This document shows, piece by piece, positions 3,144 through 64,000 of a stretch of 64,000 nucleotides of DNA. The stretch covers positions 2,051-66,050 of the forward strand of contig CAZELK010000006.1 in assembly GCA_964513145.1 (NCBI GenBank). Reading direction: 5' to 3'. The stretch is from Candidatus Woesearchaeota archaeon. GTDB lineage: Archaea; Nanobdellota; Nanobdellia; SCGC-AAA011-G17; JACPIM01. Every line of letters begins with the position of its first letter. The stretch's first letter is position 1. The position numbers and the translations under genes were made by a program. Below the pieces are notes generated by a model. The model made no database searches. It was not told the DNA's origin and was given only the letters and a program-made list of their open reading frames with translations.

Positions 3144-3245
3144 GCCCGGGTAGCTCAGACTTTTCCTATATTTAGGAATTGGAGCAACAGGTAGAGCGCA
3201 TGGCTGTTAACCATGAAGTCGGTGGTTCGAGTCCTCCCCTGGGCG
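3144..3245 (+). tRNA. tRNA-Asn (anticodon GTT) with a ~29-nt intron in the D-loop
   Basis: Acceptor stem GCCCGGG/CCTGGGC. D stem GCTC...GAGC is interrupted by ttttcctatatttaggaattggagcaaca. Anticodon arm CATGG-CTGTTAA-CCATG, anticodon GTT. T arm GGTGG-TTCGAGT-CCTCC. Mature length is ~73 nt. Confidence 0.7.
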
Positions 3246-6634: not shown

Positions 6635-7953
6635 AAACTGAAGAAGCTATAAATGAAGCAAGAGAATTAAATAAAAAATATAATTTCTTTATTACAATTA
6701 ATGAGAATCTTTTTAATGAAAAAGCTTTGCCAAAAAATGAAACTAAGATTATTTCTGTTAAAGATAATATTTGCACAAAGGGATTAAGAACAACAGCGGG
6801 ATCTAAAATTTTAGAAGATTATTATCCTGTTTTTGATGCGACTGTAATTGAACTGGCAGGGAAAAAAGGATATTCTATAATTGGAAAAACTAGCATGGAT
6901 GAGTTTGGTTTTGGAAGTTTTTCTACAAATTGCGCTTATGAAATACCAAAAAACCCCTTGGATGAAACTAAAACTTGTGGGGGTAGTTCTGGTGGCGGGG
7001 CTGGTTATACTTATGCCAGCAAATTTAGTGCTGCTTCTATAGCTGAAAGCACTGGGGGGAGCATATCTTGTCCAGCTGCATTTTGCAGTGTTGTTGGGAT
7101 TACACCAACATACGGGTTAATTTCCAGACATGGATTAATTGATTATGCCAATTCCCTAGATAAAATTGGTGTTTTTGGCAAATCTGTAAATGATAGTGTC
7201 AGACTATTAAATTCTATTTCTGGTTTTGATGAAAAAGACAGTACCTCTATTAATAAGGAAAAAGAAAATTATGAAAATTATCTTGGAAAAGATTGCAAAA
7301 AATTAAAAATAGGAATTATAAAAGAATTTTGTTCTGGATTAAATAAAAATGTTGAAAAAGAATTTTGGAATGGGGTGAAAAAGTTAGAGGACAACGGCAT
7401 AAAAACCAAAGAAGTTTCTTTTAAATCCAGTGATTTGTGTTTAAGCACTTATTATATTATAGCAATGTGTGAAGCGTCTACAAATTTAGCTAAATATTGC
7501 GGCATAAGATATGGCATGAGCAAAGAATTGAAAGGAACTTTTAATGAATATTTTTCTTCAATAAGAGAAGAATTTTTAGGAAAAGAAGCCAAGAGAAGAA
7601 TTTTATTAGGCACTTTTATGAGGATGGCTGGATATAGGGAAGCTTATTATATTAAGGCTTTAAAATTAAGAACTTTGATTACGCAGGAATTTAAAAAATT
7701 ATTCAAAGAATTTGATGTTTTGTTAACTCCAACAATGCCAATATTACCACCAAAGTTTTCGGATATAAAAAAATTAACTCCTTTAGAAAATTATATGAGT
7801 GATGTTTTAACTGTTGGACCGAATTTGTGCGGTTTCCCAATGATTTCAGTACCTGTATTAAAAAATAAACCAGTTGGTTTGCATTTTATTGCAGATCATT
7901 TGCAGGAAAATAAAATAATAAGCATTGGAGATTTTTATGAAAGAGTCAGATAA
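6631..7953 (+). CDS. gatA: Asp/Glu-tRNA amidotransferase subunit A (amidase signature family)
   Basis: 440 aa. Amidase signature GGSSGGGAG and Ser-cisSer-Lys context. Confidence 0.9.
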   Translation: MKTEEAINEARELNKKYNFFITINENLFNEKALPKNETKIISVKDNICTKGLRTTAGSKILEDYYPVFDATVIELAGKKGYSIIGKTSMDEFGFGSFSTNCAYEIPKNPLDETKTCGGSSGGGAGYTYASKFSAASIAESTGGSISCPAAFCSVVGITPTYGLISRHGLIDYANSLDKIGVFGKSVNDSVRLLNSISGFDEKDSTSINKEKENYENYLGKDCKKLKIGIIKEFCSGLNKNVEKEFWNGVKKLEDNGIKTKEVSFKSSDLCLSTYYIIAMCEASTNLAKYCGIRYGMSKELKGTFNEYFSSIREEFLGKEAKRRILLGTFMRMAGYREAYYIKALKLRTLITQEFKKLFKEFDVLLTPTMPILPPKFSDIKKLTPLENYMSDVLTVGPNLCGFPMISVPVLKNKPVGLHFIADHLQENKIISIGDFYERVR

Positions 7954-17921: not shown

Positions 17922-19022
17922 ATGATGGAAAGTTTTGTAAACCAGGCTTTGAAAAATACTAAAGAATTTGGTATGGATGATGTTCATGTTGGTGTAGCCA
18001 ACATTAAGGTTGTAGGTTGTGGTGGTGGAGGAAGTAATACTGTTACTTGGCTTCATAAGAAGGGTATTTCTGGAGCAGAGGTTGTAGCTCTTAATACTGA
18101 TAAACAGCATCTTGAAATTTCAAGTGCTGATTACAAAATTTTAATTGGAAAAGAATTAACAAGGGGTTTAGGCTGCGGCGGATTTCCTGAAAAGGGAAGA
18201 GAAGCAGCTAAAGAAAGTTTGCATGATTTAAAAGAAGTTTTGAAAAGTTCTGACATGGTTTTTGTTTGCGCTGGTTTGGGCGGAGGAACTGGAAGCGGAA
18301 GTGCACCAGTTGTAGCTCAATTAGCAAGAGAACAAGGGGCTATTGTTATTGGTACTGTTACTATGCCTTTTGATATTGAAAGGGCCAGGGTTGATAAAGC
18401 TGAATTTGCTTTACAACAATTAAGAGAAGTTAGTGATACTGTTATTGTTATTGACAACAACAGATTAACGAGTATTGCAGGAAACTTACCAATACAACAA
18501 GCATTTGCTGTTGCAAATGAATTAATTTCTACAATGATTAAGGGTATTGTTGAAACAATTGCAGTTCCATCATTAGTAAACTTAGACTATGCTGATGTAA
18601 AGGCAATAATGTCCAATGGTGATGTATCTGTTGTTGGTATTGGAGAAAGTGATACTGATTCAAGAGTAGAGGAAGCAACAAGAAGGGCATTAACAAACCC
18701 ATTATTGGATGTAAGTTATGATGGTGCAACTGGCGCTTTGATACACATAACTGGCGGAGATGACTTAACTTTAGATGAGGTCAATAGAACTGGTGAATTA
18801 ATTACTGAGAGTCTAGACCCTGATGCTAATGTTATCATGGGTGCAAGAATTGAACCTAGCATGAAAGGCAAGATAAGAGTTATGACTATTATAACTGGCG
18901 TAAACTCCCCATATATTCTTGGAAGGGTTGACAAGAAAAAATTTGCTAACCCTGGAGTGAAAGTTAGCCCTGATTTAGGGATAGACATGGTTGGGCTAAC
19001 TGCAGCTACAAGAAGGTTTTAA
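17922..19022 (+). CDS. ftsZ: Cell division GTPase FtsZ
   Basis: GGGTGSG tubulin signature. The N-terminus is MMESFVNQAL.. and GGGGEG aligns 8 nt upstream of ATG 17922. The track ORF starts at an upstream Met, 17862. Confidence 0.9.
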   Translation: MMESFVNQALKNTKEFGMDDVHVGVANIKVVGCGGGGSNTVTWLHKKGISGAEVVALNTDKQHLEISSADYKILIGKELTRGLGCGGFPEKGREAAKESLHDLKEVLKSSDMVFVCAGLGGGTGSGSAPVVAQLAREQGAIVIGTVTMPFDIERARVDKAEFALQQLREVSDTVIVIDNNRLTSIAGNLPIQQAFAVANELISTMIKGIVETIAVPSLVNLDYADVKAIMSNGDVSVVGIGESDTDSRVEEATRRALTNPLLDVSYDGATGALIHITGGDDLTLDEVNRTGELITESLDPDANVIMGARIEPSMKGKIRVMTIITGVNSPYILGRVDKKKFANPGVKVSPDLGIDMVGLTAATRRF

Positions 19023-19028
19023 GCTCCT

Positions 19029-19096
19029 GGGCATACTTTCCCCCATGCCCATGCTAAATCTTGCTAGTGCCATAGGCACTAGCTACTTTTTTTTAT
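19029..19096 (+). terminator. two GC-containing hairpins followed by a T9 run downstream of ftsZ
   Basis: GGGCAT-n10-ATGCCC, then GCTAGTGCC-ata-GGCACTAGC, then tactttttttttattttt. Confidence 0.35.
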
Positions 19097-19127
19097 TTTT
19101 AAACAGTTATACACAAGGAGATAAGAG

Positions 19128-20108
19128 GTGAAACTTTTGAATAAGGAAACAAAGATTTTTTTAATGGTTTTTTTAATTCTTGGCATAGGCTTTTTATCTA
19201 CTAATTTGGAAATAACTGGAAATACTCATTTAGTTAAGACAGAAAATAAATATTTTGAAGATTTGCCAACTGAATTAACAATAAATTCTTATCCTCCAAA
19301 GGCTGATATTTATATTTCTGGAAATTATATTGGACAAACGCCATTAACATTAACTGCCTTAGATCCGACATTATATGAAATTGAATTGAGGAAAATTGGA
19401 TATTATAATTTAAAAGAAAAAATAAATCTAGAAGCTAATATAGATAATGTAATAAGACTTGATTTAACAAAAATTGGGGAGGGAAGTTTATTTATCGACT
19501 CAAATATTAAAGAGGCTGATATTTACATAAATAATGAATTATCAGGAATCACACCAAAAAAAATATCTTTACTTGAAGGAGTTTATGATATAAAAATAAG
19601 AAAAAATAATTTCGCTGATTTTTTTACCTCGAAAGCAATAAAAGCTGGACAAAATGATAAATTATTTGCTAATTTAGACAATAAGAATTCTGGAAGCATG
19701 TATGTAGAAACTGAACCTAATGATGCAAAAATTTTAGTTGATGATGTTTATCAGGGTGTTACACCAAATTTACTAGGATTAAATACTGGTTCATATATTG
19801 TTAGAGTTGAAAAGGAAGGCTATGATTCAAAAACATTTAATGTTGAAATAAAAGAAAATGAGAGAAAAGACATTATAGCAAAATTAGATGCCAGTTTAGG
19901 CACTTTATTTGTCGGATCAGAGCCTTTTGGAGCCAAGATTTATATTGACGGAACTTATCAAGGAGTTACTCCAAAAATAGTTTCTGGTTTAGGTGATGGT
20001 TTTCATACTTTAAAAATAACCAAGGACTATTATGAGGAATATTTAGGTACAATAAAAGTAAAGAGACTGTATCCGAATAGTATTTATGTAAAATTAGTTA
20101 GAAAGTAA
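19128..20108 (+). CDS. PEGA-domain cell-surface protein (GTG start)
   Basis: Signal/TM peptide plus four PEGA-like repeats (..YIGQTPLTL...IELRKIGY.., ..VYQGVTPNLL...VRVEKEGY.., ..TYQGVTPKIV...LKITKDYY..). RBS aaggag lies 9 nt upstream. Confidence 0.7.
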   Translation: MKLLNKETKIFLMVFLILGIGFLSTNLEITGNTHLVKTENKYFEDLPTELTINSYPPKADIYISGNYIGQTPLTLTALDPTLYEIELRKIGYYNLKEKINLEANIDNVIRLDLTKIGEGSLFIDSNIKEADIYINNELSGITPKKISLLEGVYDIKIRKNNFADFFTSKAIKAGQNDKLFANLDNKNSGSMYVETEPNDAKILVDDVYQGVTPNLLGLNTGSYIVRVEKEGYDSKTFNVEIKENERKDIIAKLDASLGTLFVGSEPFGAKIYIDGTYQGVTPKIVSGLGDGFHTLKITKDYYEEYLGTIKVKRLYPNSIYVKLVRK

Positions 20109-52549: not shown

Positions 52550-53221
52550 ATGAATAAAAGAGGTCAGGTTTATATCTTATTTGCATTAGTTATAGCCTTA
52601 GTTGTTTTTGTTTTAACTAATAAATCAAACATAATCAATATTACTCCTAGTGACAGCGAGTTTAAGGAGATATCAGAAAATTATGAAACTGAAAGCAGCA
52701 ATCTTGTAAGTTCTTTAATAAAATTTAATAAACTTGATGAAGAAATATCAGAACAGTTTGCAACATTCAGCATTTTATTTACACAATATTCAAAAAGCAA
52801 AAATCCTTCTTTTGGACTGGTTTATTTTCTTAATCACAATAATGTTTTAAGAGTAGGAAATTTTTTAGATAAAAATATAAAAGTAACTGGCGGCAGTTCT
52901 GATATTAATCTTGAGGGCTGTTATTCCCTTGTTCCTGTTTTTATAAATTATAATACTTTTCAAATAAACAATTATATTGATTATGAAACATACAGGCGCA
53001 ATTCTATTACTTCCCCATGTGTTAATGAAATAACACCAGCGCCTGATCAAATAATTTTGAAAATAGGTGATGAAGAAATTGAATATGAAGTTAATATTAT
53101 ACCACAACAACCCAGGGTTGTAGTCATAAGCAGGGAAAACTTGTTTCAAGACAGAAAGGTTTTTTTAGATGATCAATTTGTAAAAGGAAAAAGACATAGG
53201 GATAATAGAGATGATGATTAA
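52550..53221 (+). CDS. class III signal peptide (archaeal type IV pilin-like) protein
   Basis: MNKRGQVYILFALVIALVVFVL: a K/R-G-Q cleavage motif followed by a hydrophobic helix. Confidence 0.55.
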   Translation: MNKRGQVYILFALVIALVVFVLTNKSNIINITPSDSEFKEISENYETESSNLVSSLIKFNKLDEEISEQFATFSILFTQYSKSKNPSFGLVYFLNHNNVLRVGNFLDKNIKVTGGSSDINLEGCYSLVPVFINYNTFQINNYIDYETYRRNSITSPCVNEITPAPDQIILKIGDEEIEYEVNIIPQQPRVVVISRENLFQDRKVFLDDQFVKGKRHRDNRDDD

Positions 53222-54649: not shown

Positions 54650-55111
54650 ATGGGGTTTTTAAATAAAAAAGGTATTTCACCTTTAATTGCAACTGTATTA
54701 TTAATAGGATTTACTGTTGCCTTGGCTGCAGTAGTCATTACATGGGGCAGCGGGTTTGTACAAAGAATTACAACTGGGACTGAAGACAGAACAACAAGAA
54801 CTGTAACTTGCACTAGTGATGTAAACTTTGAAATTACAAAAGTTGACTGTAATACAAAAGCAGTTACAATAACAAATACTGGTGATTTTCCTATCCTTGG
54901 ATTTACATTTAGATTTTTTAATAGTGGAGGCGATTATTTGGGAATGACAAATGGTGATGGAGCAAATAAATTTGAGGTTAAAATTATTAATCTTCAAAAT
55001 ATCCCTTCTACAACCAGCAAAGTAGAAGCTTTATCAACAATAATACTTGAAGGTCAGAATGTTACATGCAAAGATATAATCAAAGAAAAAATATTTAGTC
55101 CAGCTTGTTAA
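54650..55111 (+). CDS. archaeal type IV pilin (class III signal peptide), paralog
   Basis: N-terminal ~105 nt are identical to 54121..54579 bar one mismatch. C-terminal ..FSPAC. Confidence 0.75.
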   Translation: MGFLNKKGISPLIATVLLIGFTVALAAVVITWGSGFVQRITTGTEDRTTRTVTCTSDVNFEITKVDCNTKAVTITNTGDFPILGFTFRFFNSGGDYLGMTNGDGANKFEVKIINLQNIPSTTSKVEALSTIILEGQNVTCKDIIKEKIFSPAC

Positions 55112-55143: not shown

Positions 55144-55716
55144 TCAAATCAACTTTTTAACTTTAACTCTTATTTTTTCCGGATATCTTTTCAAATAAGT
55201 TTCTAATCTTTTAAAATTTATTTTCTTTTTTATTTCTCTTAATAATTGTTTATCAATTGACTGATTAAAAACCACCATGTCAATAAATGTTTTTTCAATA
55301 TCTGAGTACGGAAAGTAAAAACTACCCTCTTTTAAAAGCTCAAAACCAAAAAAATACTTTTTATTAATATTTCTTATCAAAACATTTGTCCCCAAAAATT
55401 CTCTAATTCCCCTTCTAACTTTTTTTGTAGTTAAAATTACAGGTATTGTTTCCTGCTCCCATAAACCATAAAAACTTAAGGCGGTTTGCAATCCTAAATA
55501 AGCTGGTTTAAATGCAAAAACAGGAAGAGAACTTTCGTCATATTTTGTATAAAATCCCTTACCAACTTTTTTTACTTTATTTTTCTTTAAAAGATTTGAA
55601 ATTAATAATTTTGCATAGTTATTCTTTCCAATTATTCTCTCAATAGATTTAAAGTCTACTACTGGACTTCTTTCAAATAATCTCTCTATTTTTTTTAAAT
55701 GTATTTGTTTTCCCAT
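55144..55716 (-). CDS. AbiEi-like (type IV TA antitoxin-like) wHTH protein
   Basis: 190 aa. N-terminal ..LLKKNKVKKVGKGFYTKYD.. resembles the AbiEi_4 domain (L..G.l.rv.rGvY). Overlaps the upstream gene by 22 nt. Confidence 0.45.
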   Translation of the reverse strand: MGKQIHLKKIERLFERSPVVDFKSIERIIGKNNYAKLLISNLLKKNKVKKVGKGFYTKYDESSLPVFAFKPAYLGLQTALSFYGLWEQETIPVILTTKKVRRGIREFLGTNVLIRNINKKYFFGFELLKEGSFYFPYSDIEKTFIDMVVFNQSIDKQLLREIKKKINFKRLETYLKRYPEKIRVKVKKLI

Positions 55717-56174
55717 TTCTTTTTTATATAATCAAACATTTCGTCAGAAGAAGGAATAATTCCTTCAGTAATTATGGCTTTTAAATTACTTTCATCAATT
55801 GGTTTTTTATAATATTTAATTAGTTTTTCAATATCTTTATTGTGAATTTTAGAATTTTTCAACAAGAAGAAAATATCCCATAAATCCCTGACTTTAAATC
55901 TTTTTAGATAAGTATTAATTTTTTCAATTAAAAAATCTTCAATTGTCAGACTATAAATCGAGATTAAAGTCCCATCAGACATTTCATAATCACAAATTAC
56001 GCCTGAAATCTTTTGAAAGGTCGCTTCCAATCTAACAGAAGTTCTATCAAATTCCAGTTCAGAATAAATGCTATTTTCTGATATCTTTTTCTTCTTAATT
56101 TGAAATCCTATCTTTTTTAAATTTTCAAATAATAACTCAATTTTTGAATTATCGTTTGGAAAATAAAAATCCAA
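55695..56174 (-). CDS. AbiEii-like nucleotidyltransferase-fold protein (short)
   Basis: 159 aa. C-terminal VRDLWDIFFLL matches the AbiEii (DUF1814) RDlYDl..L motif. The N-terminal NTase motifs are degenerate or truncated. Confidence 0.4.
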   Translation of the reverse strand: MDFYFPNDNSKIELLFENLKKIGFQIKKKKISENSIYSELEFDRTSVRLEATFQKISGVICDYEMSDGTLISIYSLTIEDFLIEKINTYLKRFKVRDLWDIFFLLKNSKIHNKDIEKLIKYYKKPIDESNLKAIITEGIIPSSDEMFDYIKKKWENKYI

Positions 56175-56425
56175 ATCTTCAGAAAATCTTTTTCCCTGAT
56201 AACATCTCCATATCCCTGTTCCCCCATAAAACTGCTTTTTTTAAATAGAATAAACTTCCTGAACAATTAAATCCTGGGCATAAGCTATTTTTTTGTGAGT
56301 TTCCCTGTTCAATCTTATCTGCAAAGGTAATTTTTCCATATTATTAACAAAAGTTATATATCTATATATCTTTCTGTTAATATAATAAATAACTAAAAAA
56401 CTTTCTATTTTATATTATTTATTGT

Positions 56426-56546
56426 ATATTTACTCATTATTAATGAATTATAGATACGATTAATATGGTAAACCTTCCTACTATTCACTATCCTAATGAA
56501 ACTCCCACATAAATAGTGAATAATACCTCATATTTTCTATTGAGAA
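56426..56546 (+). repeat. direct repeat copy A (~121 bp core, diverged extension to ~56610)
   Basis: atatttactcattattaatgaattata...ttcactatc...aataatac[ct]tcatattttctatt[t]gagaa. About 85% identical to 59265..59386. Confidence 0.7.
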
Positions 56547-56640
56547 GTTTGCAAAATAGTTAATTTAGATTTGTCACTTATACAAAAAGCTTTCTAATAT
56601 TAATAGTAAACTTTATAAGTAAGCTTTCTATTTATATTAT

Positions 56641-57927
56641 ATGGATTTTAAAAGTATAATTAAAGAACAAAGAGAAGAACTCGAAAAAATAGAAAGAGAA
56701 GAAAAAATAATAGAAAGAACTAATTTAGAAGAGTCTAAAATAGCATTAAAATACCCAAATATACTTGCTATTTTAGGTATTAGAAGGTGCGGTAAGTCAA
56801 TTTTTTCATATTTATTGGCAAAACCACATAAATTTGCATACATTAATTTTGATGACGAAAGGCTAGCTGGATTGAAAAGTGGGGACTTGAACAAGATTTT
56901 AGAATCTTTTTATGAAATTTATGGAGATATAGAATTTATAATTTTAGATGAAATACAAAATATAGATAACTGGGAACTATTTGTCAATAGATTAAGAAGA
57001 ACAAAAAAAATAATCTTAACAGGAAGCAATTCTAAACTTTTATCAGGGGAATTATCAACTCATTTAACTGGAAGATACTTAAATAAATTATTGTTTCCAT
57101 TTTCTTTTAAAGAACTATTAAAATTGAAAGATTTTAAAGAAAATAATGTTTATACAACACAAGAAAAAGCAAAAATTATGGGACTTTTGCAAGAATATCT
57201 TGAACTGGGTGGATTCCCGGAAGCATATAAATTTGGAAGAGGAATAATTTTAAGAATTTATGAAGATATATTAACAAAGGATATTTTATTAAGACACAAT
57301 ATAACCAAGAGAGAAGAAATAAAAAAATTAGCTAAATACTTAATAACAAATTCTTCTGGAGAAATAACTTATAGCAAATTAGCAAAAATATTTAATATTA
57401 AACATGTTTCAACAATATCTAACTGGATTTCGTTTCTCGAAAATGCTTTTTTGATTTTTAGATTGGAAAGATTTGACTTTAAGTTAAAACAGCAATTTAT
57501 AGCTCCAAAGAAAGTATATTGTATTGATTCCGGACTTGTTAATTCAATAGGGTTTCAATTCTCAGAAAATAAGGGAGAAATTATTGAAAATGAAGCTGCA
57601 TTAGAATTACAGAGAAGAAAAGCTATAGATAAATCTCTTGAAGTTTATTATTGGAAAAACCATCAGCAGAATGAAGTAGATTTTGTTCTAAAAAGAGACA
57701 AAAAAATAGAAAGTTTAATTCAAGTCAGCTATATAAACTCAAAAGAAGAAATAAAAGAAAGAGAAATTAATTCTTTAATAAAAGCAAGCAAAGAGCTAAA
57801 ATGTAAAAATCTTGTTGTTATAACCTGGGATTATGAATCAGAAGAAAAGTTTTATGGAGAAGAGATTAAATTTGTTCCATTATGGAATTGGCTGCTTGGA
57901 TATAAAGAACATATTAAAATAAACTAA
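56641..57927 (+). CDS. AAA+ ATPase, AAA_14/DUF4143 family
   Basis: 428 aa. Walker A GIRRCGKS, Walker B IILDEIQ, DUF4143-like C-terminal half. Confidence 0.8.
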   Translation: MDFKSIIKEQREELEKIEREEKIIERTNLEESKIALKYPNILAILGIRRCGKSIFSYLLAKPHKFAYINFDDERLAGLKSGDLNKILESFYEIYGDIEFIILDEIQNIDNWELFVNRLRRTKKIILTGSNSKLLSGELSTHLTGRYLNKLLFPFSFKELLKLKDFKENNVYTTQEKAKIMGLLQEYLELGGFPEAYKFGRGIILRIYEDILTKDILLRHNITKREEIKKLAKYLITNSSGEITYSKLAKIFNIKHVSTISNWISFLENAFLIFRLERFDFKLKQQFIAPKKVYCIDSGLVNSIGFQFSENKGEIIENEAALELQRRKAIDKSLEVYYWKNHQQNEVDFVLKRDKKIESLIQVSYINSKEEIKEREINSLIKASKELKCKNLVVITWDYESEEKFYGEEIKFVPLWNWLLGYKEHIKIN

Positions 57928-58512: not shown

Positions 58513-59094
58513 ATGAAAAAAGGCCAGATATGGACATCAGCAGTTTTGTATATAGTTATAGGAGTAATTACAATATCAATTATTTTAAGTGCTGGGGTAC
58601 CTTTAGTAAATAAATTAAAAGATAAAAATACAATAATCCAAACAAAAGAATTAATGCTGGACTTGGATAAAGTAATTAGGGAAGTTAGAAATGAGGGGCC
58701 TGGTTCGAAAAGGGTTATACAGCCTTTTGTTATAAAGGATGGAAATTTTTTTATTAATACAACAAATAATGAAAATAAAATACAATGGATATTGAAAACT
58801 AGTGCTGTATTTGTTGAACCTTGTGGAAAAACAAAAGCAGACTGCTTAAGCAATAATTTAATTATTAAAGAGGGGCCTTTAAGTATTTATGACACTGATA
58901 CTATTGTTGAAGATGAATATATTATTAATTTGGAATTAGACTATGCTGGCGTTGGTTTTTTGAAAATGAAAGAGGGTCTTGGCAAAGATGCGCCTTTGCT
59001 AGGGAGATTTTCTTTTATAATTGAAAATTCTGGTGCTGATATTACAAGAAGTCCACCAACGAACCTGCCTGATTTGGATATTACAGTAAATTGA
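58513..59094 (+). CDS. class III signal peptide (pilin-like) protein
   Basis: MKKGQIWTSAVLYIVIGVITISIIL. The track ORF (58462) extends upstream into the preceding gene. Confidence 0.6.
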   Translation: MKKGQIWTSAVLYIVIGVITISIILSAGVPLVNKLKDKNTIIQTKELMLDLDKVIREVRNEGPGSKRVIQPFVIKDGNFFINTTNNENKIQWILKTSAVFVEPCGKTKADCLSNNLIIKEGPLSIYDTDTIVEDEYIINLELDYAGVGFLKMKEGLGKDAPLLGRFSFIIENSGADITRSPPTNLPDLDITVN

Positions 59095-59264
59095 ACGGTT
59101 TCTTCAAAAAAAAAGTAAGAACTTGATTTTTATATCCTAACTAAGCTTTTCATTTATTTTCTTGAGATTGAAAAGTATTATTTTTTGCAGATTTGAAAGT
59201 AATTTTTTATCTTCTCTTGCTCTTGCCCCTTTAGTATAATTCAGGTATTCGTCCAGCAATCTGC

Positions 59265-59386
59265 ATATTTACTCATTATTAATGAATTATATATGGGATT
59301 AATATGGCAGACCCCCCTATTATTCACTATCATAATAATATTTCACCATAAATAATGAATAATACTTCATATTTTCTATTTGAGAA
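59265..59386 (+). repeat. direct repeat copy B
   Basis: See copy A. A further diverged similarity exists at ~59420-59445 versus ~56585-56610. Confidence 0.7.
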
Positions 59387-59567
59387 ACACCTTAAATCTG
59401 TAGTCTGACTAAAATAAGAAAACCATAAATTTTCTCTTACTATTAATGGTGAGGAAGGCAGGGGTTTTGCTGGACTGGGTTTTTCATGGTAATGTTACTA
59501 TTTATTTGTTAATGCACTTCTTTATATAGAATAAGTTGATAATTTATTTATAAAAGAGCTGTGTTAA

Positions 59568-60815
59568 ATGAAATTAGAAAATACATTAACTATTTTTTGT
59601 ATTTCCCTTTTGGGTTTTTTATTGTTATTAGTTAATTTTTATACTGTTAAATATAATGAAGACATTACTGGACAAATTGTATTAAGTGATTTTGCCTTGT
59701 TTGGTGCTGCTGCTTCTGGTGATAAAAATGCATGCAATGCCATTGCAAGCACTTATGCAGGAAATTTGGATGTTTTACCAAAATCAGTTTTAGATGCATG
59801 CAGATTTCCAAAGACTCCTTCTTTTTCTACACAAGTTGATAATTTAAACTTGGAACAATTAGATACAAATCTGAAAAATGTAGACAATTCTATTGCACAA
59901 TTAGATTTATTAGGATCTGCCATGAGCAACAGTATACCTAGTCTAAAAGAAGAAAAAACTACTTTAGAAGGTGAATTTATTTCTCTTAAAACTGAGATCC
60001 CTAAGTTAGCAACTACTATTTCTGAATTTGATACAAAACTTAGAAAAGTTAATTCAGATTTAAGCAAAGCAAAAAGTAAACCCTGCAAAATATTTCAAAC
60101 CAGCTGCAAGACTTTAAAGAACCAAGAAGTTTCTAAATTTAAATCTGAAGCTGATTTATTAAATAAAGACAAATCTTCTGCAGTAAGGAATAGCAAAGGA
60201 AAAACAGTTTTATTAAATAATAAAAGAGCTAAATTAAGTGATTTATCTTCCCAAATACAATTAGCTGAACAAGTTAAAGCTAATATTGGAAATAAGAAAA
60301 ATGAATTAAATAAGTTAAAGAATGACATTACTAATAAAATAAGTGAATTGGAAAAAGAAATTTTAGATGAAACAATTCGTGTTGAAGATGAGGATGATAT
60401 ATCAAATGCAGAAGTATCCAAAACTAGTAAAGTCTGCCATTGCACTCTGCGAGAGATAACAGAGGTAGAATGCAAGAAGAAAGGAATTCCTATTCAAACT
60501 GGTCCTGAAACTATTACTCCTTGGGAAGAAGGTGTTGCAAGTGGCGGTACTTGGAAAGTTTATCTTGATCGGGGTTTTGGTATGTCTGCAACAAAGTGCA
60601 CGCGTGATTTGATTTATCCAGATGGTGCCTGTAATTCTGATGCGGACTGCATAGAGGGCTGTGCCTTTAAAATGCAGGATCAAGGGTCGACGGCGAGACT
60701 TGATTGCTTGGATACAGTGGAAAGAATTTGTGCAAAGAGAGGAGGGACAACGAATAAACTTTACTGGCCTGTTCGAAAGGAAGGTATTTGTTTGGATGTA
60801 GTTAGCGCTCCTTGA
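59568..60815 (+). CDS. membrane-anchored coiled-coil protein with Cys-rich C-terminal domain (candidate surface/adhesin protein)
   Basis: 415 aa. N-terminal signal anchor. ~250 aa Lys/Asn/Leu-rich coiled coil. C-terminal ~130 aa with 14 Cys (CHC...ECKKKG...CTRD...CNSDADCIEGC...). The C-terminus is encoded by GC-rich DNA. Confidence 0.6.
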   Translation: MKLENTLTIFCISLLGFLLLLVNFYTVKYNEDITGQIVLSDFALFGAAASGDKNACNAIASTYAGNLDVLPKSVLDACRFPKTPSFSTQVDNLNLEQLDTNLKNVDNSIAQLDLLGSAMSNSIPSLKEEKTTLEGEFISLKTEIPKLATTISEFDTKLRKVNSDLSKAKSKPCKIFQTSCKTLKNQEVSKFKSEADLLNKDKSSAVRNSKGKTVLLNNKRAKLSDLSSQIQLAEQVKANIGNKKNELNKLKNDITNKISELEKEILDETIRVEDEDDISNAEVSKTSKVCHCTLREITEVECKKKGIPIQTGPETITPWEEGVASGGTWKVYLDRGFGMSATKCTRDLIYPDGACNSDADCIEGCAFKMQDQGSTARLDCLDTVERICAKRGGTTNKLYWPVRKEGICLDVVSAP

Positions 60816-61059
60816 AACATAGGTTTAGCACCCAAACTTAATCTTTAACTGCTTTAGGTGCTAATAAATATCAATAAGAATTGCACTACCAATACCGAAG
60901 ATTTTATTTTTCATTTAATTATTACTAAATAAATAACATCCTTATTAATTAAGGGTGAAGTCAGATTATCTTGTAGAACTCTCGGGGACTTTCTATAACA
61001 ACTTTTTTAATCCTGTTTCAAACATAGCTTTTAAATATTAGAAATGCAAATAATTATTT

Positions 61060-64000
61060 ATGTTAGGTCAAAATAAAGAGGTTATAGAGTTCAAGCCGAT
61101 TTTTTACATAAATCCAAGACCAGAGATAGCTGAATTACCTGATGTAAAAGAAAAGCAAAAAATAGATGTGAGATATGTTTTATTAGAACCTTATGTAAAT
61201 GCACATATTTTCTGGGACAAAGAAAACAATGAACTTGTATATTATGTTGAAGAACCACAATTAGATGAAAAAGAATTAAATGTCCTGAATATTTTAGAAA
61301 ATGGGATAAATGAATTAATAAACATCAGCTTTATTGCAATGAAAAATACTGATGTTGTAGTTGAATATTTAGAAAAAAACATAAGGGTTTTATTAAATGA
61401 ATTGAAAATAAGCATTTCCAAAGAATCTTATTTAAAATTAATGTATTATATTTACAGAGATTTTGTTGGACTAAATGAAATTGAGCCTTTGCTAAAGGAT
61501 TATTATATTGAAGATATTGAATGCAATGGTGTTAATACTCCAATTTACATTGTCCATAGAAAATACAGGAATTTAAGAACAAATATTATTTTTAAAGATG
61601 CAAAAGAATTAACTAGTTTTGTAGAAAAATTAGCACAAAAATGCGGGAAATATATATCTTATGCTTCCCCTTTATTAGACGCAAGTTTGCCAGATGGGTC
61701 GCGTATTCAAGCAACATTCACGCAAGATATTTCTTCAAGAGGACCAAGTTTTTGCTTTGCTGACGGATATTTACAATTAAATAATGGCGAGGTTGTGAAA
61801 ATAAATAAATTATTTGAAAAATGTAAAAATGACTTTGGTTCAAGTTTTGATAAAGAAAATGAAATTGTTAATGTAACTAATGTTGGTGTTTGCGGAGTTG
61901 ATGAAAATAATTTAAAACAAATTGATTCTAAACTAAAAACTATAATAAAATTGAAACCACCTGAAGAATTAGTAAATATTGGATTTGATGATGGTTCAGA
62001 AATAATCACAACTACAAACCACTTATTTCATGTGGTGGATAATGATTTAAGCCTTTTAGAAGCACATAAATTAAAAACCGGGTTGTTTGTACCTATGCCT
62101 TCTAAAGTAGATGTAGAGGGTTGCATGCAATCTATCAACATAGTCAATTTAATAAAGGAATTTTCTTATTTATATAAAGTCTGTCTAGTTTCAAACCAAG
62201 AAATTAAAAACATAGTTTCCAACAATATTGATTTTTATAAAAATAAAAGCAGAGATTATAGAATACAAATGGCTCAGGACTATACAGTACATAATTCTTA
62301 TTTCTATGAGATTCTTTCAAGAGGAAGCTCAATTTCTTTTGAAGTTCTTAATGAAATATGTGATCTTAATTCTCTGGATGAAATCAATTTAGTTGTTTAT
62401 GGCGGTCCTGTTAAAAAAGAAAGAAAATCTATAAATGTACCAAAAATTTTAGATGAGGAATTAGCTTATCTGGCTGGTGCTATAATTAGTGATGGTCATC
62501 TCAGTAAATATAGTATTGATATTGCTTGTTATAATACTGGATTTACAAATGCGGTTACTACCAGACTAAAAAATAAATTTGGGAAATTTAATGTCTATTA
62601 TAATGGTACCAGAGTTTATTTGTGCAATCTATTTGTGCCTTTTTTCTTCAATAAAATATTTGGCATACCTTATGGAAGGAAAGCAAAAATTGTAAATATT
62701 CCGGAGATAATATTTAAATCAGATAATAAAATAATTGCCGCTTTTTTAAAAGGTTTATTTGACGGTGATGGGACATGCAAATCTGGAATAAGCTATAAAA
62801 CAAGCTCCAAAGAACTTGCAGAACAATTAACTTATTTATTAGCCAGATTAGGGTTATATTCCAAAATTATACTTAAAAAGAATATGTATAGAGTTCTTAT
62901 ACCGTCAATTTATGAAAATATTTATTCTGAAAAAATTAATTTTTGTGATACTTTTAAAATTAAATGTTTGAGCGAGTTACTTTTGAAGAAAGGAAATAAT
63001 GCCAAATCTTATATTAGACATGGCAGAGTCCCTGCAAAACCCATCCTGAACTTAATGAAAGATGTGGGTTTATCTAAAAATAAAGCAAGTAAATTATGTA
63101 AAGTGAGCTATAACAGATTAGTACATTATGACTCCTTGTCAAAACCTTTTGTTAAACAAATAATTAGTTTAATAGAATTGGAAATAGAAAACAAGGGGAT
63201 AAAAAACTGCAAATTAGACTACATAAAATGGTTAGTTGGATGTGAACAAGAATTTGTTAAAATTAAACATGTAAAAATCTTTGAAAATAAAAATAAAATA
63301 CCAGTTTATGATATAGAATTAGAACCTTGTAAATTCTTTATAGCTGGAAACAAACCAATGAATATTTTTGATACAGTTAGAAAATTTACAAAAGACCCAT
63401 GGACCCCAGTTAAATTAATGCAATTTAAAACAGTTTCACCAGAAATTTTGGCTTATCTCTGGCTGTTAATAGAAAATGAAGCAAATATAATGATAATCGG
63501 CGGAACTGGTTCTGGAAAAACTTCTTTTCTGAACTCGATTGCTTTTTTTATTCCGCCAGCAGCAAGGGTTGTTTCAATTGAGGATAGTGTCACTGGAGAC
63601 TCCGAGATTATATATAAAAATAAAGATAAAATTGAAAAATTAACAATAGGTAAATTAACAAAATTAGTAAATAGTAAAAAAATTAATTTAGAAAACATTG
63701 AAATTTTGACAGTAGATGATGACTGGAAAGTCAGATTTGGAAAACCCAGCAAATTTATAAAACATTCAACAAATAAAGATATATTCAAAATTACAACTTC
63801 GACTGGCAGAATAATAGAGGTAACAAAAGATCATTCTTTGTTTACACTAACCACTTCCGGATTAGTTGAAGTAAAACCAGAGAATTTAGAAGAAAATGTA
63901 TCCTGTATTGCTGTTCCCAGAGTTCTGCCTATAGAAGGAAAAGGTTTTTTTGATATTAATTTAATTAATCATTTAAATTATTTTAATGAAGATTTTTTAA
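61060..64000 (+). CDS. FlaI/GspE-family type IV pilus/archaellum assembly ATPase, interrupted by two inteins; 3' end outside the window
   Basis: Extein ...SRIQATFTQDISSRGPSF | TVRKFTKDPWTPVKLMQ...IMIIGGTGSGKTSFLNSIAFFIPPAARVVSIED | ... aligns to FlaI (..SRRGTSFTIRKF.., Walker A, ..ISIEDT..). The ORF stays open to the window end. Confidence 0.8.
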   Translation, partial: MLGQNKEVIEFKPIFYINPRPEIAELPDVKEKQKIDVRYVLLEPYVNAHIFWDKENNELVYYVEEPQLDEKELNVLNILENGINELINISFIAMKNTDVVVEYLEKNIRVLLNELKISISKESYLKLMYYIYRDFVGLNEIEPLLKDYYIEDIECNGVNTPIYIVHRKYRNLRTNIIFKDAKELTSFVEKLAQKCGKYISYASPLLDASLPDGSRIQATFTQDISSRGPSFCFADGYLQLNNGEVVKINKLFEKCKNDFGSSFDKENEIVNVTNVGVCGVDENNLKQIDSKLKTIIKLKPPEELVNIGFDDGSEIITTTNHLFHVVDNDLSLLEAHKLKTGLFVPMPSKVDVEGCMQSINIVNLIKEFSYLYKVCLVSNQEIKNIVSNNIDFYKNKSRDYRIQMAQDYTVHNSYFYEILSRGSSISFEVLNEICDLNSLDEINLVVYGGPVKKERKSINVPKILDEELAYLAGAIISDGHLSKYSIDIACYNTGFTNAVTTRLKNKFGKFNVYYNGTRVYLCNLFVPFFFNKIFGIPYGRKAKIVNIPEIIFKSDNKIIAAFLKGLFDGDGTCKSGISYKTSSKELAEQLTYLLARLGLYSKIILKKNMYRVLIPSIYENIYSEKINFCDTFKIKCLSELLLKKGNNAKSYIRHGRVPAKPILNLMKDVGLSKNKASKLCKVSYNRLVHYDSLSKPFVKQIISLIELEIENKGIKNCKLDYIKWLVGCEQEFVKIKHVKIFENKNKIPVYDIELEPCKFFIAGNKPMNIFDTVRKFTKDPWTPVKLMQFKTVSPEILAYLWLLIENEANIMIIGGTGSGKTSFLNSIAFFIPPAARVVSIEDSVTGDSEIIYKNKDKIEKLTIGKLTKLVNSKKINLENIEILTVDDDWKVRFGKPSKFIKHSTNKDIFKITTSTGRIIEVTKDHSLFTLTTSGLVEVKPENLEENVSCIAVPRVLPIEGKGFFDINLINHLNYFNEDFL
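61753..63372 (+). mobile_element. Intein 1 (540 aa) with LAGLIDADG homing-endonuclease domain
   Basis: Starts CFADGY (block A). Block B TTTNHLFHV. Two LAGLIDADG motifs (LAYLAGAIISDGH, IAAFLKGLFDGDG). C-terminal block VYDIELEPCKFFIAGNKPMNIFD followed by +1 Thr; the last residue appears to be Asp rather than Asn. Confidence 0.75.
63586..64000 (+). mobile_element. Intein 2 (partial), inserted at the conserved IED|T site
   Basis: Begins SVTGDSEII (Ser1 block A). Block B TKDHSLF. Continues past the window end. Confidence 0.55.

Follow-up and report, generated by a model that had tools for sequence, protein, structure and literature searches.

The DNA analysed here (the window) is a 64,000-nucleotide stretch of contig CAZELK010000006.1 from a Candidatus Woesearchaeota archaeon, and this report concerns one gene within its type IV pilus-like locus. 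The locus opens with a 156-residue gene, a 223-residue gene and pilins; three inserted genes (one AbiEii-like, the one beside it and an AAA_14 ATPase) interrupt the latter. One further pilin, a 193-residue pilin-like gene, the target gene, a T2SSE assembly ATPase and two T2SSF genes follow. The target is a genuine gene for a protein of 415 residues and, as stated in a preliminary description of the sequence, lies downstream of the pilin array and upstream of the FlaI-type ATPase (Table 1). We hold with moderate confidence that its product is an accessory, lineage-restricted cell-surface protein rather than a core pilus component; a role in surface contact is its most likely reading. Two earlier suggestions, a tip-adhesin role and a foreign origin of the C-terminal tail, are unproven.

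The window, with a guanine-plus-cytosine (GC) content of 29.1% over 64 kb, comes from the chromosome of an AT-rich archaeon and includes genes for GatD, GatE/GatB, a GatA-type amidase, FtsZ, DNA ligase, ArgRS, ABCE1 and SufB. The relatives are Candidatus Woesearchaeota, in support of the DPANN affiliation proposed earlier. Among the pilin-like genes, those at 53211, 53651 and 54121 reached the TIGR02537 cut-off and those at 54650 and 57999 matched PF07790 below threshold. The 193-residue pilin-like protein has 28 homologues at 39–99% identity.

The target protein contains a single hydrophobic segment (residues ~3–26; Kyte–Doolittle 19-residue maximum 2.35), in agreement with the N-terminal transmembrane anchor described previously. 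Its N-terminus, MKLENTLTIF, does not contain a class III motif ([KR]-G/A then a hydrophobic helix), and no obvious signal-peptidase site was found there. This helix is read as an uncleaved signal anchor, and the flanking charges and Cys pairing suggest an N-in, C-out orientation. The adjoining residues 28–90 are helical (AlphaFold2 predicted local distance difference test score, pLDDT, 66–81) and form the most conserved block of the family; the base cysteines Cys56 and Cys78 and the GNL.VLP and PSFST motifs are all kept in the sole homologue lineage. The two stalk helices (76 and 102 residues) were modelled with pLDDT 74–97. Significant heptad periodicity in three blocks was detected across residues 95–279, and the long coiled coil reported before is thus upheld by periodicity and helical model alike. 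Matches of the stalk in family libraries were to generic coiled-coil families only, for example SMC. A monomer model, for which the alignment comprised two sequences, predicts that the stalk folds as an antiparallel hairpin; an extended oligomer is also possible. The hairpin turn, SKPCKIFQTSCK, is polar and lacks any hydrophobic head or tongue.

An acidic linker (~residues 262–289) leads from the stalk to the C-terminal domain, which contains ten cysteines (290, 292, 302, 344, 355, 361, 365, 380, 388 and 408). Of the 15 in the whole protein, the membrane helix contributes one, the N-terminal two thirds a further four and residues 290–408 the remaining ten; the figure of 14 previously given for the C-terminal domain is instead the count outside the membrane helix. 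This external count is even, as are those of 7/7 pilin-like proteins of the locus. N-x-S/T sequons are scarce both in the target (0 vs 4.3 expected, P=0.008) and in its sister protein P0002 (1 vs 5.7 expected, P=0.013). Sequons are few in the seven pilin-like proteins as well (5 observed vs ~12 expected in all seven combined). One relative has, only a few genes away from its pilus locus, a gene of the VKOR family of disulfide-bond formation enzymes (L006 18616-19458), consistent with the even Cys counts of all the pilin-like proteins. Even Cys count, sequon depletion and the relative's VKOR gene together fit an exported, disulfide-bonded ectodomain.

Homologues were sought by word-indexed search of 5.8 billion proteins and by exhaustive HMMER search of 1.84 billion representative proteins. 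Residues 1–261 have relatives in one sister lineage only, at 28–30% identity, as found by exhaustive HMMER, profile search and scans of genome and metagenome contigs. Members of this lineage (P0002, P0005 and P0035-39) are annotated as 'hypothetical protein, Candidatus Woesearchaeota archaeon' (RIFCSPHIGHO2_02_FULL_29_19). All four N-part cysteines are conserved in the sister protein (4/4), and its tail is an unrelated Trp/Pro-rich repeat sequence. The end of homology at ~residue 261, the linker and a change in composition fall together within a few dozen nucleotides. These observations support a C-terminal tail that is a swappable, separable module, as its earlier treatment as a distinct domain had implied.

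A separate homology search with the C-terminal domain, as had been proposed, yielded no relatives except one borderline match. The word-indexed search returned a fragment of the same protein only, whereas exhaustive HMMER gave a single hit (E=5.4e-4) to P0004, a Bacteroidota-type protein with FG-GAP_3 and type IX secretion system (T9SS) tail regions. Nothing was found for this domain in Pfam, NCBIfam, PHROGs or PDB sequence searches, by phage tblastn or in a viral contig scan, and no paralogue of it is present in the window or in loci L001-L010. Within the sister lineage, P0005 and P0002 differ by 3 substitutions over 286 N-part residues and by ~17 substitutions plus 4 indels over 155 tail residues (manual count on the alignment). 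Between the window and the sister-lineage locus L003, flanking pilus proteins are 44–81% identical, the target N part is 28% identical and the tail is unalignable. In Nanoarchaeota populations, diversification is greatest in the genes for surface proteins and pilus components (PMC6142677), a pattern that the fast evolution of the target fits.

Related loci were retrieved via the neighbouring 193-residue pilin-like protein. In nine of these (L005, L006, L007, L008, L009/L010 counted as one, L011, L013, L014 and L015) the target gene is absent and the ATPase begins ~40–85 bp after the last pilin-like gene. Among the nine are the closest relatives, with 80% and 72% identity in the pilin-like protein, and all nine keep the ATPase and, where the contig extends far enough, both T2SSF genes. 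The short gap in the relatives contains a conserved promoter motif, AAACATAGCTTTTAAATAT(A/T)AGAAA, which the window retains at 61020-61045; it follows that the ~1.9 kb between 59095 and ~61015 are inserted DNA. No convincing terminal repeats, inverted or direct, were identified that would bracket the insert as a whole. At the corresponding junction L003 has, in the opposite orientation, the target homologue plus a 368-residue gene; no remnant of the 368-residue gene was found in the upstream spacer of the window.

Accessory genes also occupy this junction, and a second site of the locus, in other lineages. In a distant relative (L016 9533-14184) the same junction holds a 900-residue CARDB-domain protein on the minus strand and a second gene, encoding a 591-residue protein that has a signal peptide, an acidic, helical central part and 21 Cys in its C-terminal region. 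Similarity of the target to the latter is confined to a 13-residue motif, Y.D..CN.D.DCI (pairwise E=0.021). The second site (L009 1523-4536 and L010 715-4247) encodes an anchored 345-residue, 16-Cys protein and secreted proteins of 659/832 residues, in which Cys-rich repeats precede a long coiled coil. The near-identical strains L009 and L010 differ here by an extra ~90-residue repeat and a longer coiled-coil end. The target showed no similarity to these Cys-rich accessory proteins.

The non-coding parts of the insert are also distinctive. The 125-bp repeat in the upstream spacer contains the internal inverted repeats TATTATTCACTAT / ATAATGAATAATA, and its copies precede two accessory genes, the target and the AAA_14/DUF4143 gene. 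It is absent from the related loci and from viral contigs, and could be a shared operator or an insertion footprint. A structured RNA was considered for this repeat and rejected, its fold z-scores being only -1 to -2 and not significant. The promoter-like block contains CTTCTTTATATA at 59516-59527, with a TATA box, TTTATATA, at 59520-59527, and probably acts as an archaeal promoter. The 12-nucleotide junction motif, AAACATAGSTTT, occurs in exactly two copies in the window, 205 bp apart and flanking a 193-bp segment; ~0.07 exact copies per window are expected by chance (our estimate from base composition). In the relatives the motif is single-copy, just 3' of the last pilin-like gene. Its doubling in the window may reflect a duplication that arose when DNA was inserted or recombined.

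Table 1. Features of the target gene and its surroundings (window coordinates)
Feature	Position	Strand	Description
Target open reading frame	59568-60815	+	415 residues plus stop
N-terminal hydrophobic helix	59571-59645	+	Residues 2-26; without prepilin motif
Conserved membrane-proximal helical module	59649-59837	+	Residues 28-90; Cys56/Cys78 pair, PSFST motif
Helical stalk	59850-60404	+	Helix 95-170, turn 171-177, helix 178-279; conserved Cys173/Cys180 pair flanks turn
Orphan C-terminal module	60408-60812	+	Residues 281-415: acidic linker, then 10-Cys domain
Upstream spacer	59095-59567	+	473 bp, left part of insert; mosaic of 125-bp repeat and pilin-type promoter block
125-bp non-coding repeat	59262-59386	+	85% identical to 56423-56546, same orientation; internal inverted repeats
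Promoter-like block	59495-59551	+	57 bp, ~77% identical to region upstream of pilin gene 54650
Direct repeat copy 1, AAACATAGGTTT	60815-60826	+	Overlaps last base of target stop codon
Direct repeat copy 2, AAACATAGCTTT	61020-61031	+	Junction motif; leads into conserved ATPase promoter TTTAAATATTAGAAA
Last pilin-like gene of array	58513-59094	+	193 residues from internal Met; class III-type N-terminus MKKG/QIWTSAVLY
T2SSE/FlaI-type assembly ATPase start	61060-64000	+	Intein-interrupted; runs off window, then two T2SSF genes
190-residue gene adjoining AbiEii-like gene	55144-55716	-	Within pilin array
AbiEii-like nucleotidyltransferase	55695-56174	-	Within pilin array
AAA_14/DUF4143 ATPase	56641-57927		Within pilin array

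The preliminary description had called the tail GC-richer than the gene and the genome, and of foreign composition. The contrast itself is clear: codons 281–415 have 44.2% GC, compared with 27.6% for codons 1–280 and 29.1% for the window, and a sliding scan of the 64 kb placed the highest 300-nucleotide GC (0.453, at 60511) inside the target tail. The cited codons are present (GCG twice, GGC twice, ACG three times, CGG and GAC once each), as is GTCGAC at 60686-60691. GC at the first, second and third codon positions (GC1, GC2 and GC3) of the tail is 0.50, 0.51 and 0.32. Expected GC was calculated by resampling synonymous codons from the window's own usage with the amino-acid sequence held fixed, and gave 39.9% for the tail. 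Amino-acid composition is thus responsible for ~11/15 excess GC points (about 70%). The contrast arises mostly because a globular domain rich in Gly, Ala, Cys, Arg and Thr adjoins a coiled coil rich in Lys, Asn, Leu and Ser, and a GC-rich tail in this position is expected in this genome. The unrelated tail of the sister protein is GC-rich too (40.8% vs 30.1%), all via GC1 and GC2, with a GC3 of 0.18. The GatA-type amidase and FtsZ genes contain the other GC peaks of the window (~0.39–0.41), at 6821-7200 and 18011-19130, which shows that high local GC in this genome follows conserved protein domains rich in Gly and Ala. Where a genome has 29% GC, finding a GC-rich patch within a gene is accordingly no evidence of horizontal transfer when taken alone.

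A residual codon effect was nevertheless observed in the tail, with a GC3 of 0.32 vs 0.23 expected (z=2.7, P=0.008) and an intragenic step from 0.15 to 0.32. Arg is encoded by CGN at 4/7 positions (10% in the window) and Thr by ACG at 3/13 (3%), and TTA is used for none of seven Leu (55%). CpG dinucleotides number 12 in the 405 nucleotides of the tail, the window maximum, vs one in the first 840 nucleotides of the gene, in a window whose CpG observed/expected ratio is 0.43. This leftover switch in synonymous usage is a modest hint of a separate history of the tail. The claim of foreign composition is weak, as the bulk of the GC excess follows from amino-acid content and no donor was found, nor any homologue beyond the borderline FG-GAP-like match. 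Because the module boundary coincides with the composition change, a codon and CpG shift persists and the sister lineage is without the module, horizontal acquisition is plausible, although unproven. Structured RNA was discounted as a source of the GC-rich patch, an Rfam search at gathering threshold and at E <= 10 having returned nothing credible. The patch is coding sequence, as its frame is open for 135 codons and GC3 is lower than GC1 and GC2.

Cluster-2 DPANN, Woesearchaeota among them, have two conserved type IV pilus-like loci in which coiled-coil proteins (CCPs) have been described (Hamm 2024, Nat Commun, PMC11291902); CCPs are defined as proteins encoded within about 10 genes of CpaF, TadC or pilin genes in a cluster-2 DPANN genome. 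Those of Ca. Nanohaloarchaeum antarcticus were detected by proteomics, and a host interaction was proposed (PMC11291902). Like the CCPs, the target lies among CpaF/FlaI-type ATPase, TadC/FlaJ-type platform and pilin genes of a DPANN genome and is dominated by coiled coil, as predicted from helix pLDDT, heptads and generic family matches. In contrast to the CCPs, the target is not conserved across the locus family, being optional and inserted, and its Cys-rich tail is exchangeable; exhaustive HMMER with the target retrieved no nanohaloarchaeal or other CCP-like protein. CCPs have been described as nucleoporin-like or reovirus sigma-1-like; for the target monomer model, sigma-1 (PDB 6GAO) was not among the top 50 Foldseek PDB matches. 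A search of the BFVD viral structure library with the full-length model gave generic long-helix matches only. The best-supported assignment is that the target is an unannotated variant in kind within the described class of DPANN pilus-locus coiled-coil proteins; sequence homology to CCPs could not be shown.

Modular receptor-binding proteins (phage tail fibres, reovirus sigma-1 and bacterial coiled-coil adhesins) are a further point of comparison. The target shares with them a conserved anchor and stalk, a C-terminal module that differs in the sister, and variation in the sister lineage that is concentrated in this module. It differs in being membrane-anchored, not virion- or filament-borne, in having no homology to these proteins, and in being modelled as an intramolecular hairpin instead of a parallel trimer. 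Resemblance of the tail to the FG-GAP-like repeat (PF13517) of P0004 was also considered. Residues 329–402 align to its 71-residue unit (WKVYL...YW.V) with 32% identity and in the same register against five P0004 repeats, and P0004 itself matches FG-GAP_3 and Por_Secre_tail. The target, however, has a single unit in which the Ca-binding DxNxDGxxD motif is not conserved, and gave no Pfam hit (PF13517/PF01839). With a borderline hhalign probability of 59% and library-wide E-value of 5.4e-4, the resemblance is a lead rather than family membership. Finally, with the archaeal type IV pilins (PF07790 / TIGR02537) the target shares its locus, predicted secretion and an even number of extracytoplasmic cysteines; it differs from them in its much greater length, its alpha-helical coiled coil, and the absence of a class III signal peptide and pilin domain. 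Assignment as a type IV pilin was rejected, there being neither a PF07790 or TIGR02537 match nor a class III motif.

In the reading that we prefer, the uncleaved signal anchor would leave the remainder of the protein outside the cell, where its 14 cysteines would form disulfides. Base and stalk would act as a constant scaffold, with a 76-residue arm ~11 nm long if the predicted hairpin holds. The C-terminal module would be an exchangeable, fast-evolving putative binding head for cell–cell or cell-surface contact. The protein would be co-expressed with the pili, in line with its pilin-like promoter block. The head would have been joined to the stalk through recombination at the linker, and the high-GC3, CpG-rich residual usage is a hint that it came fairly recently from a source less rich in AT. 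Adhesion or host recognition, as proposed earlier, would be inferred from this context.

Several observations weigh against this reading. The surface-contact function is deduced from sequence and genomic context, and the role of the C-terminal domain as a binding head is pure inference for a domain without a significant homologue, whose single-sequence AlphaFold2 model (pLDDT 37) is unusable. If the stalk is an intramolecular hairpin, the C-terminal module would return toward the membrane, off the distal tip, which fits a receptor-binding head less well. No donor of the tail was found in protein, phage or viral searches, and the codon-usage anomaly of a housekeeping gene in the window, GatD, is at least as great, with a comparable GC3 deviation (z=3.06). 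The junction is probably a recombination hotspot that collects unrelated genes as well, and the AbiEii-like gene, its neighbour and the AAA_14 ATPase are unrelated inserts nearby; location alone is therefore weak evidence for a pilus-linked function.

This last point is shared by an alternative in which the target is a pilus-unrelated surface protein, for example an envelope or surface-layer strut, in a permissive hotspot, and in which the GC contrast reflects amino-acid composition purely, with no acquired module. The ~70% of the GC excess predicted from composition, the GC-rich but low-GC3 tail of the sister, the further window GC peaks in conserved Gly/Ala-rich proteins, the uptake of clearly unrelated genes by the locus and the differing junction content among lineages would all be explained. 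Homologous genes at the same junction in two lineages, a pilin-like promoter and other junction occupants that are likewise secreted, adhesin-like or Cys-rich would not, and the sharp intragenic switch (GC3 0.15 to 0.32; CpG 1 to 12) remains. We judge this alternative unlikely, if deserving of consideration. By analogy with module swapping, the junction could also be a dedicated hotspot for exchanging lineage-specific disulfide-rich surface proteins, with a constant stalk and recombined heads, some of them foreign, as a cassette system for host range or partner specificity. This proposal is speculative and, in our estimation, rather unlikely. A pilus tip or pilus-borne adhesin presenting the Cys-rich domain to a host cell, as first suggested, would accord with a gene sited between pilin array and assembly ATPase, with its pilin-like promoter block and with the linkage to the pilus locus kept by the L003 homologue. 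Bacterial non-pilin adhesins that dock on minor-pilin complexes (PilY1/PilC) offer a precedent. An uncleaved membrane anchor, however, precludes extrusion with the filament. The target also lacks the class III signal peptide and pilin N-terminal domain, whereas its neighbours match TIGR02537/PF07790, and nine related loci are without the gene while retaining the full set of pilin, ATPase and platform genes. The suggested pilus-borne role was not sustained by these data, and we consider it improbable.

Absence from the same nine loci also separates the target from the conserved machinery, and led us to reject a core scaffold (FlaX or PilN/PilO-like). The corresponding rival proposes a scaffold or regulator, either bitopic and FlaX- or PilN/PilO-like, or a cytoplasmic HP0958/CT398-like metal-binding hairpin acting on the ATPase. 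It draws on the adjoining ATPase gene, on a His/Cys cluster in the domain (C290-H-C292), on the appearance of the hairpin-plus-Zn-ribbon proteins HP0958, CT398 and MSMEG_4306 in the weak Foldseek matches, and on a halobacterial pilus locus whose intracellular coiled-coil protein has been compared with HP0958 (PMC4858521). Every Foldseek match, however, had E >= 2.7e-3 and was to a generic helical hairpin. Conserved Cys pairs run along the whole ectodomain, sequons are depleted and the flanking charges favour N-in, C-out. The absence of CxxC...CxxC pairs and the presence of an N-terminal membrane helix excluded an HP0958/CT398-type protein, and the machinery explanation as a whole appears highly improbable. 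Least credible is a ClyA-family-like alpha-helical protein that forms pores in, or otherwise perturbs, the host membrane, for which we see scarcely any likelihood. Host-membrane remodelling by DPANN symbionts is documented (PMC11291902), weak NCBIfam matches to MakA (E=0.008) and NheC (E=0.046) were obtained, and, independently, AhlC, MakA, NheA, XaxA/YaxA and SmhB were the top Foldseek PDB matches. These scores lie far under the family cut-offs (MakA 15.2 bits vs 320), with Foldseek E >= 2.7e-3 and query-normalised TM-scores <= 0.39. The polar hairpin turn, with no hydrophobic head or tongue and no second hydrophobic segment, likewise led to rejection of a ClyA-family toxin. SMC arms score equally, so that the ClyA-family, SMC-arm and HP0958-type pointers were all set aside as generic long-helix similarity.

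Candidate genes for recognition of, and attachment to, partner cells by DPANN archaea are mostly unannotated surface proteins near pilus genes. The locus described here is a concrete example, comprising a two-lineage family in which anchor and stalk are conserved while the tail is exchangeable and varies fast, at a junction that in another lineage gathers a protein with CARDB, the Pfam cell-adhesion-related domain, and a Cys-rich secreted protein. Binding of the tail to a host surface component, if true, would provide a handle on host specificity. A cassette hotspot, if true, would be an analogue for episymbiotic archaea of module swapping in phage receptor-binding proteins.

Further variation was seen around the locus. 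The pilin array is split by three genes within 55144-57927, and in relatives L009-L011 the AAA_14 gene is placed elsewhere, near archease. On a longer contig (L001 4548-10583) the pilus ATPase is 2011 residues in length and is interrupted by several inteins (Intein_splicing and LAGLIDADG_3). Relatives differ in intein load, with ATPases of 523–528 residues (none), 973, 1024, 1179, 1254, 1486, 1806 and 2008 residues. Elsewhere in the window, a marginal Rfam tRNA match of 54 nucleotides was found at 3188-3241 on the plus strand (30.2 bits vs a gathering score of 29); ARAGORN reports none there, and the match could represent a tRNA that is split or atypical, or else a fragment.

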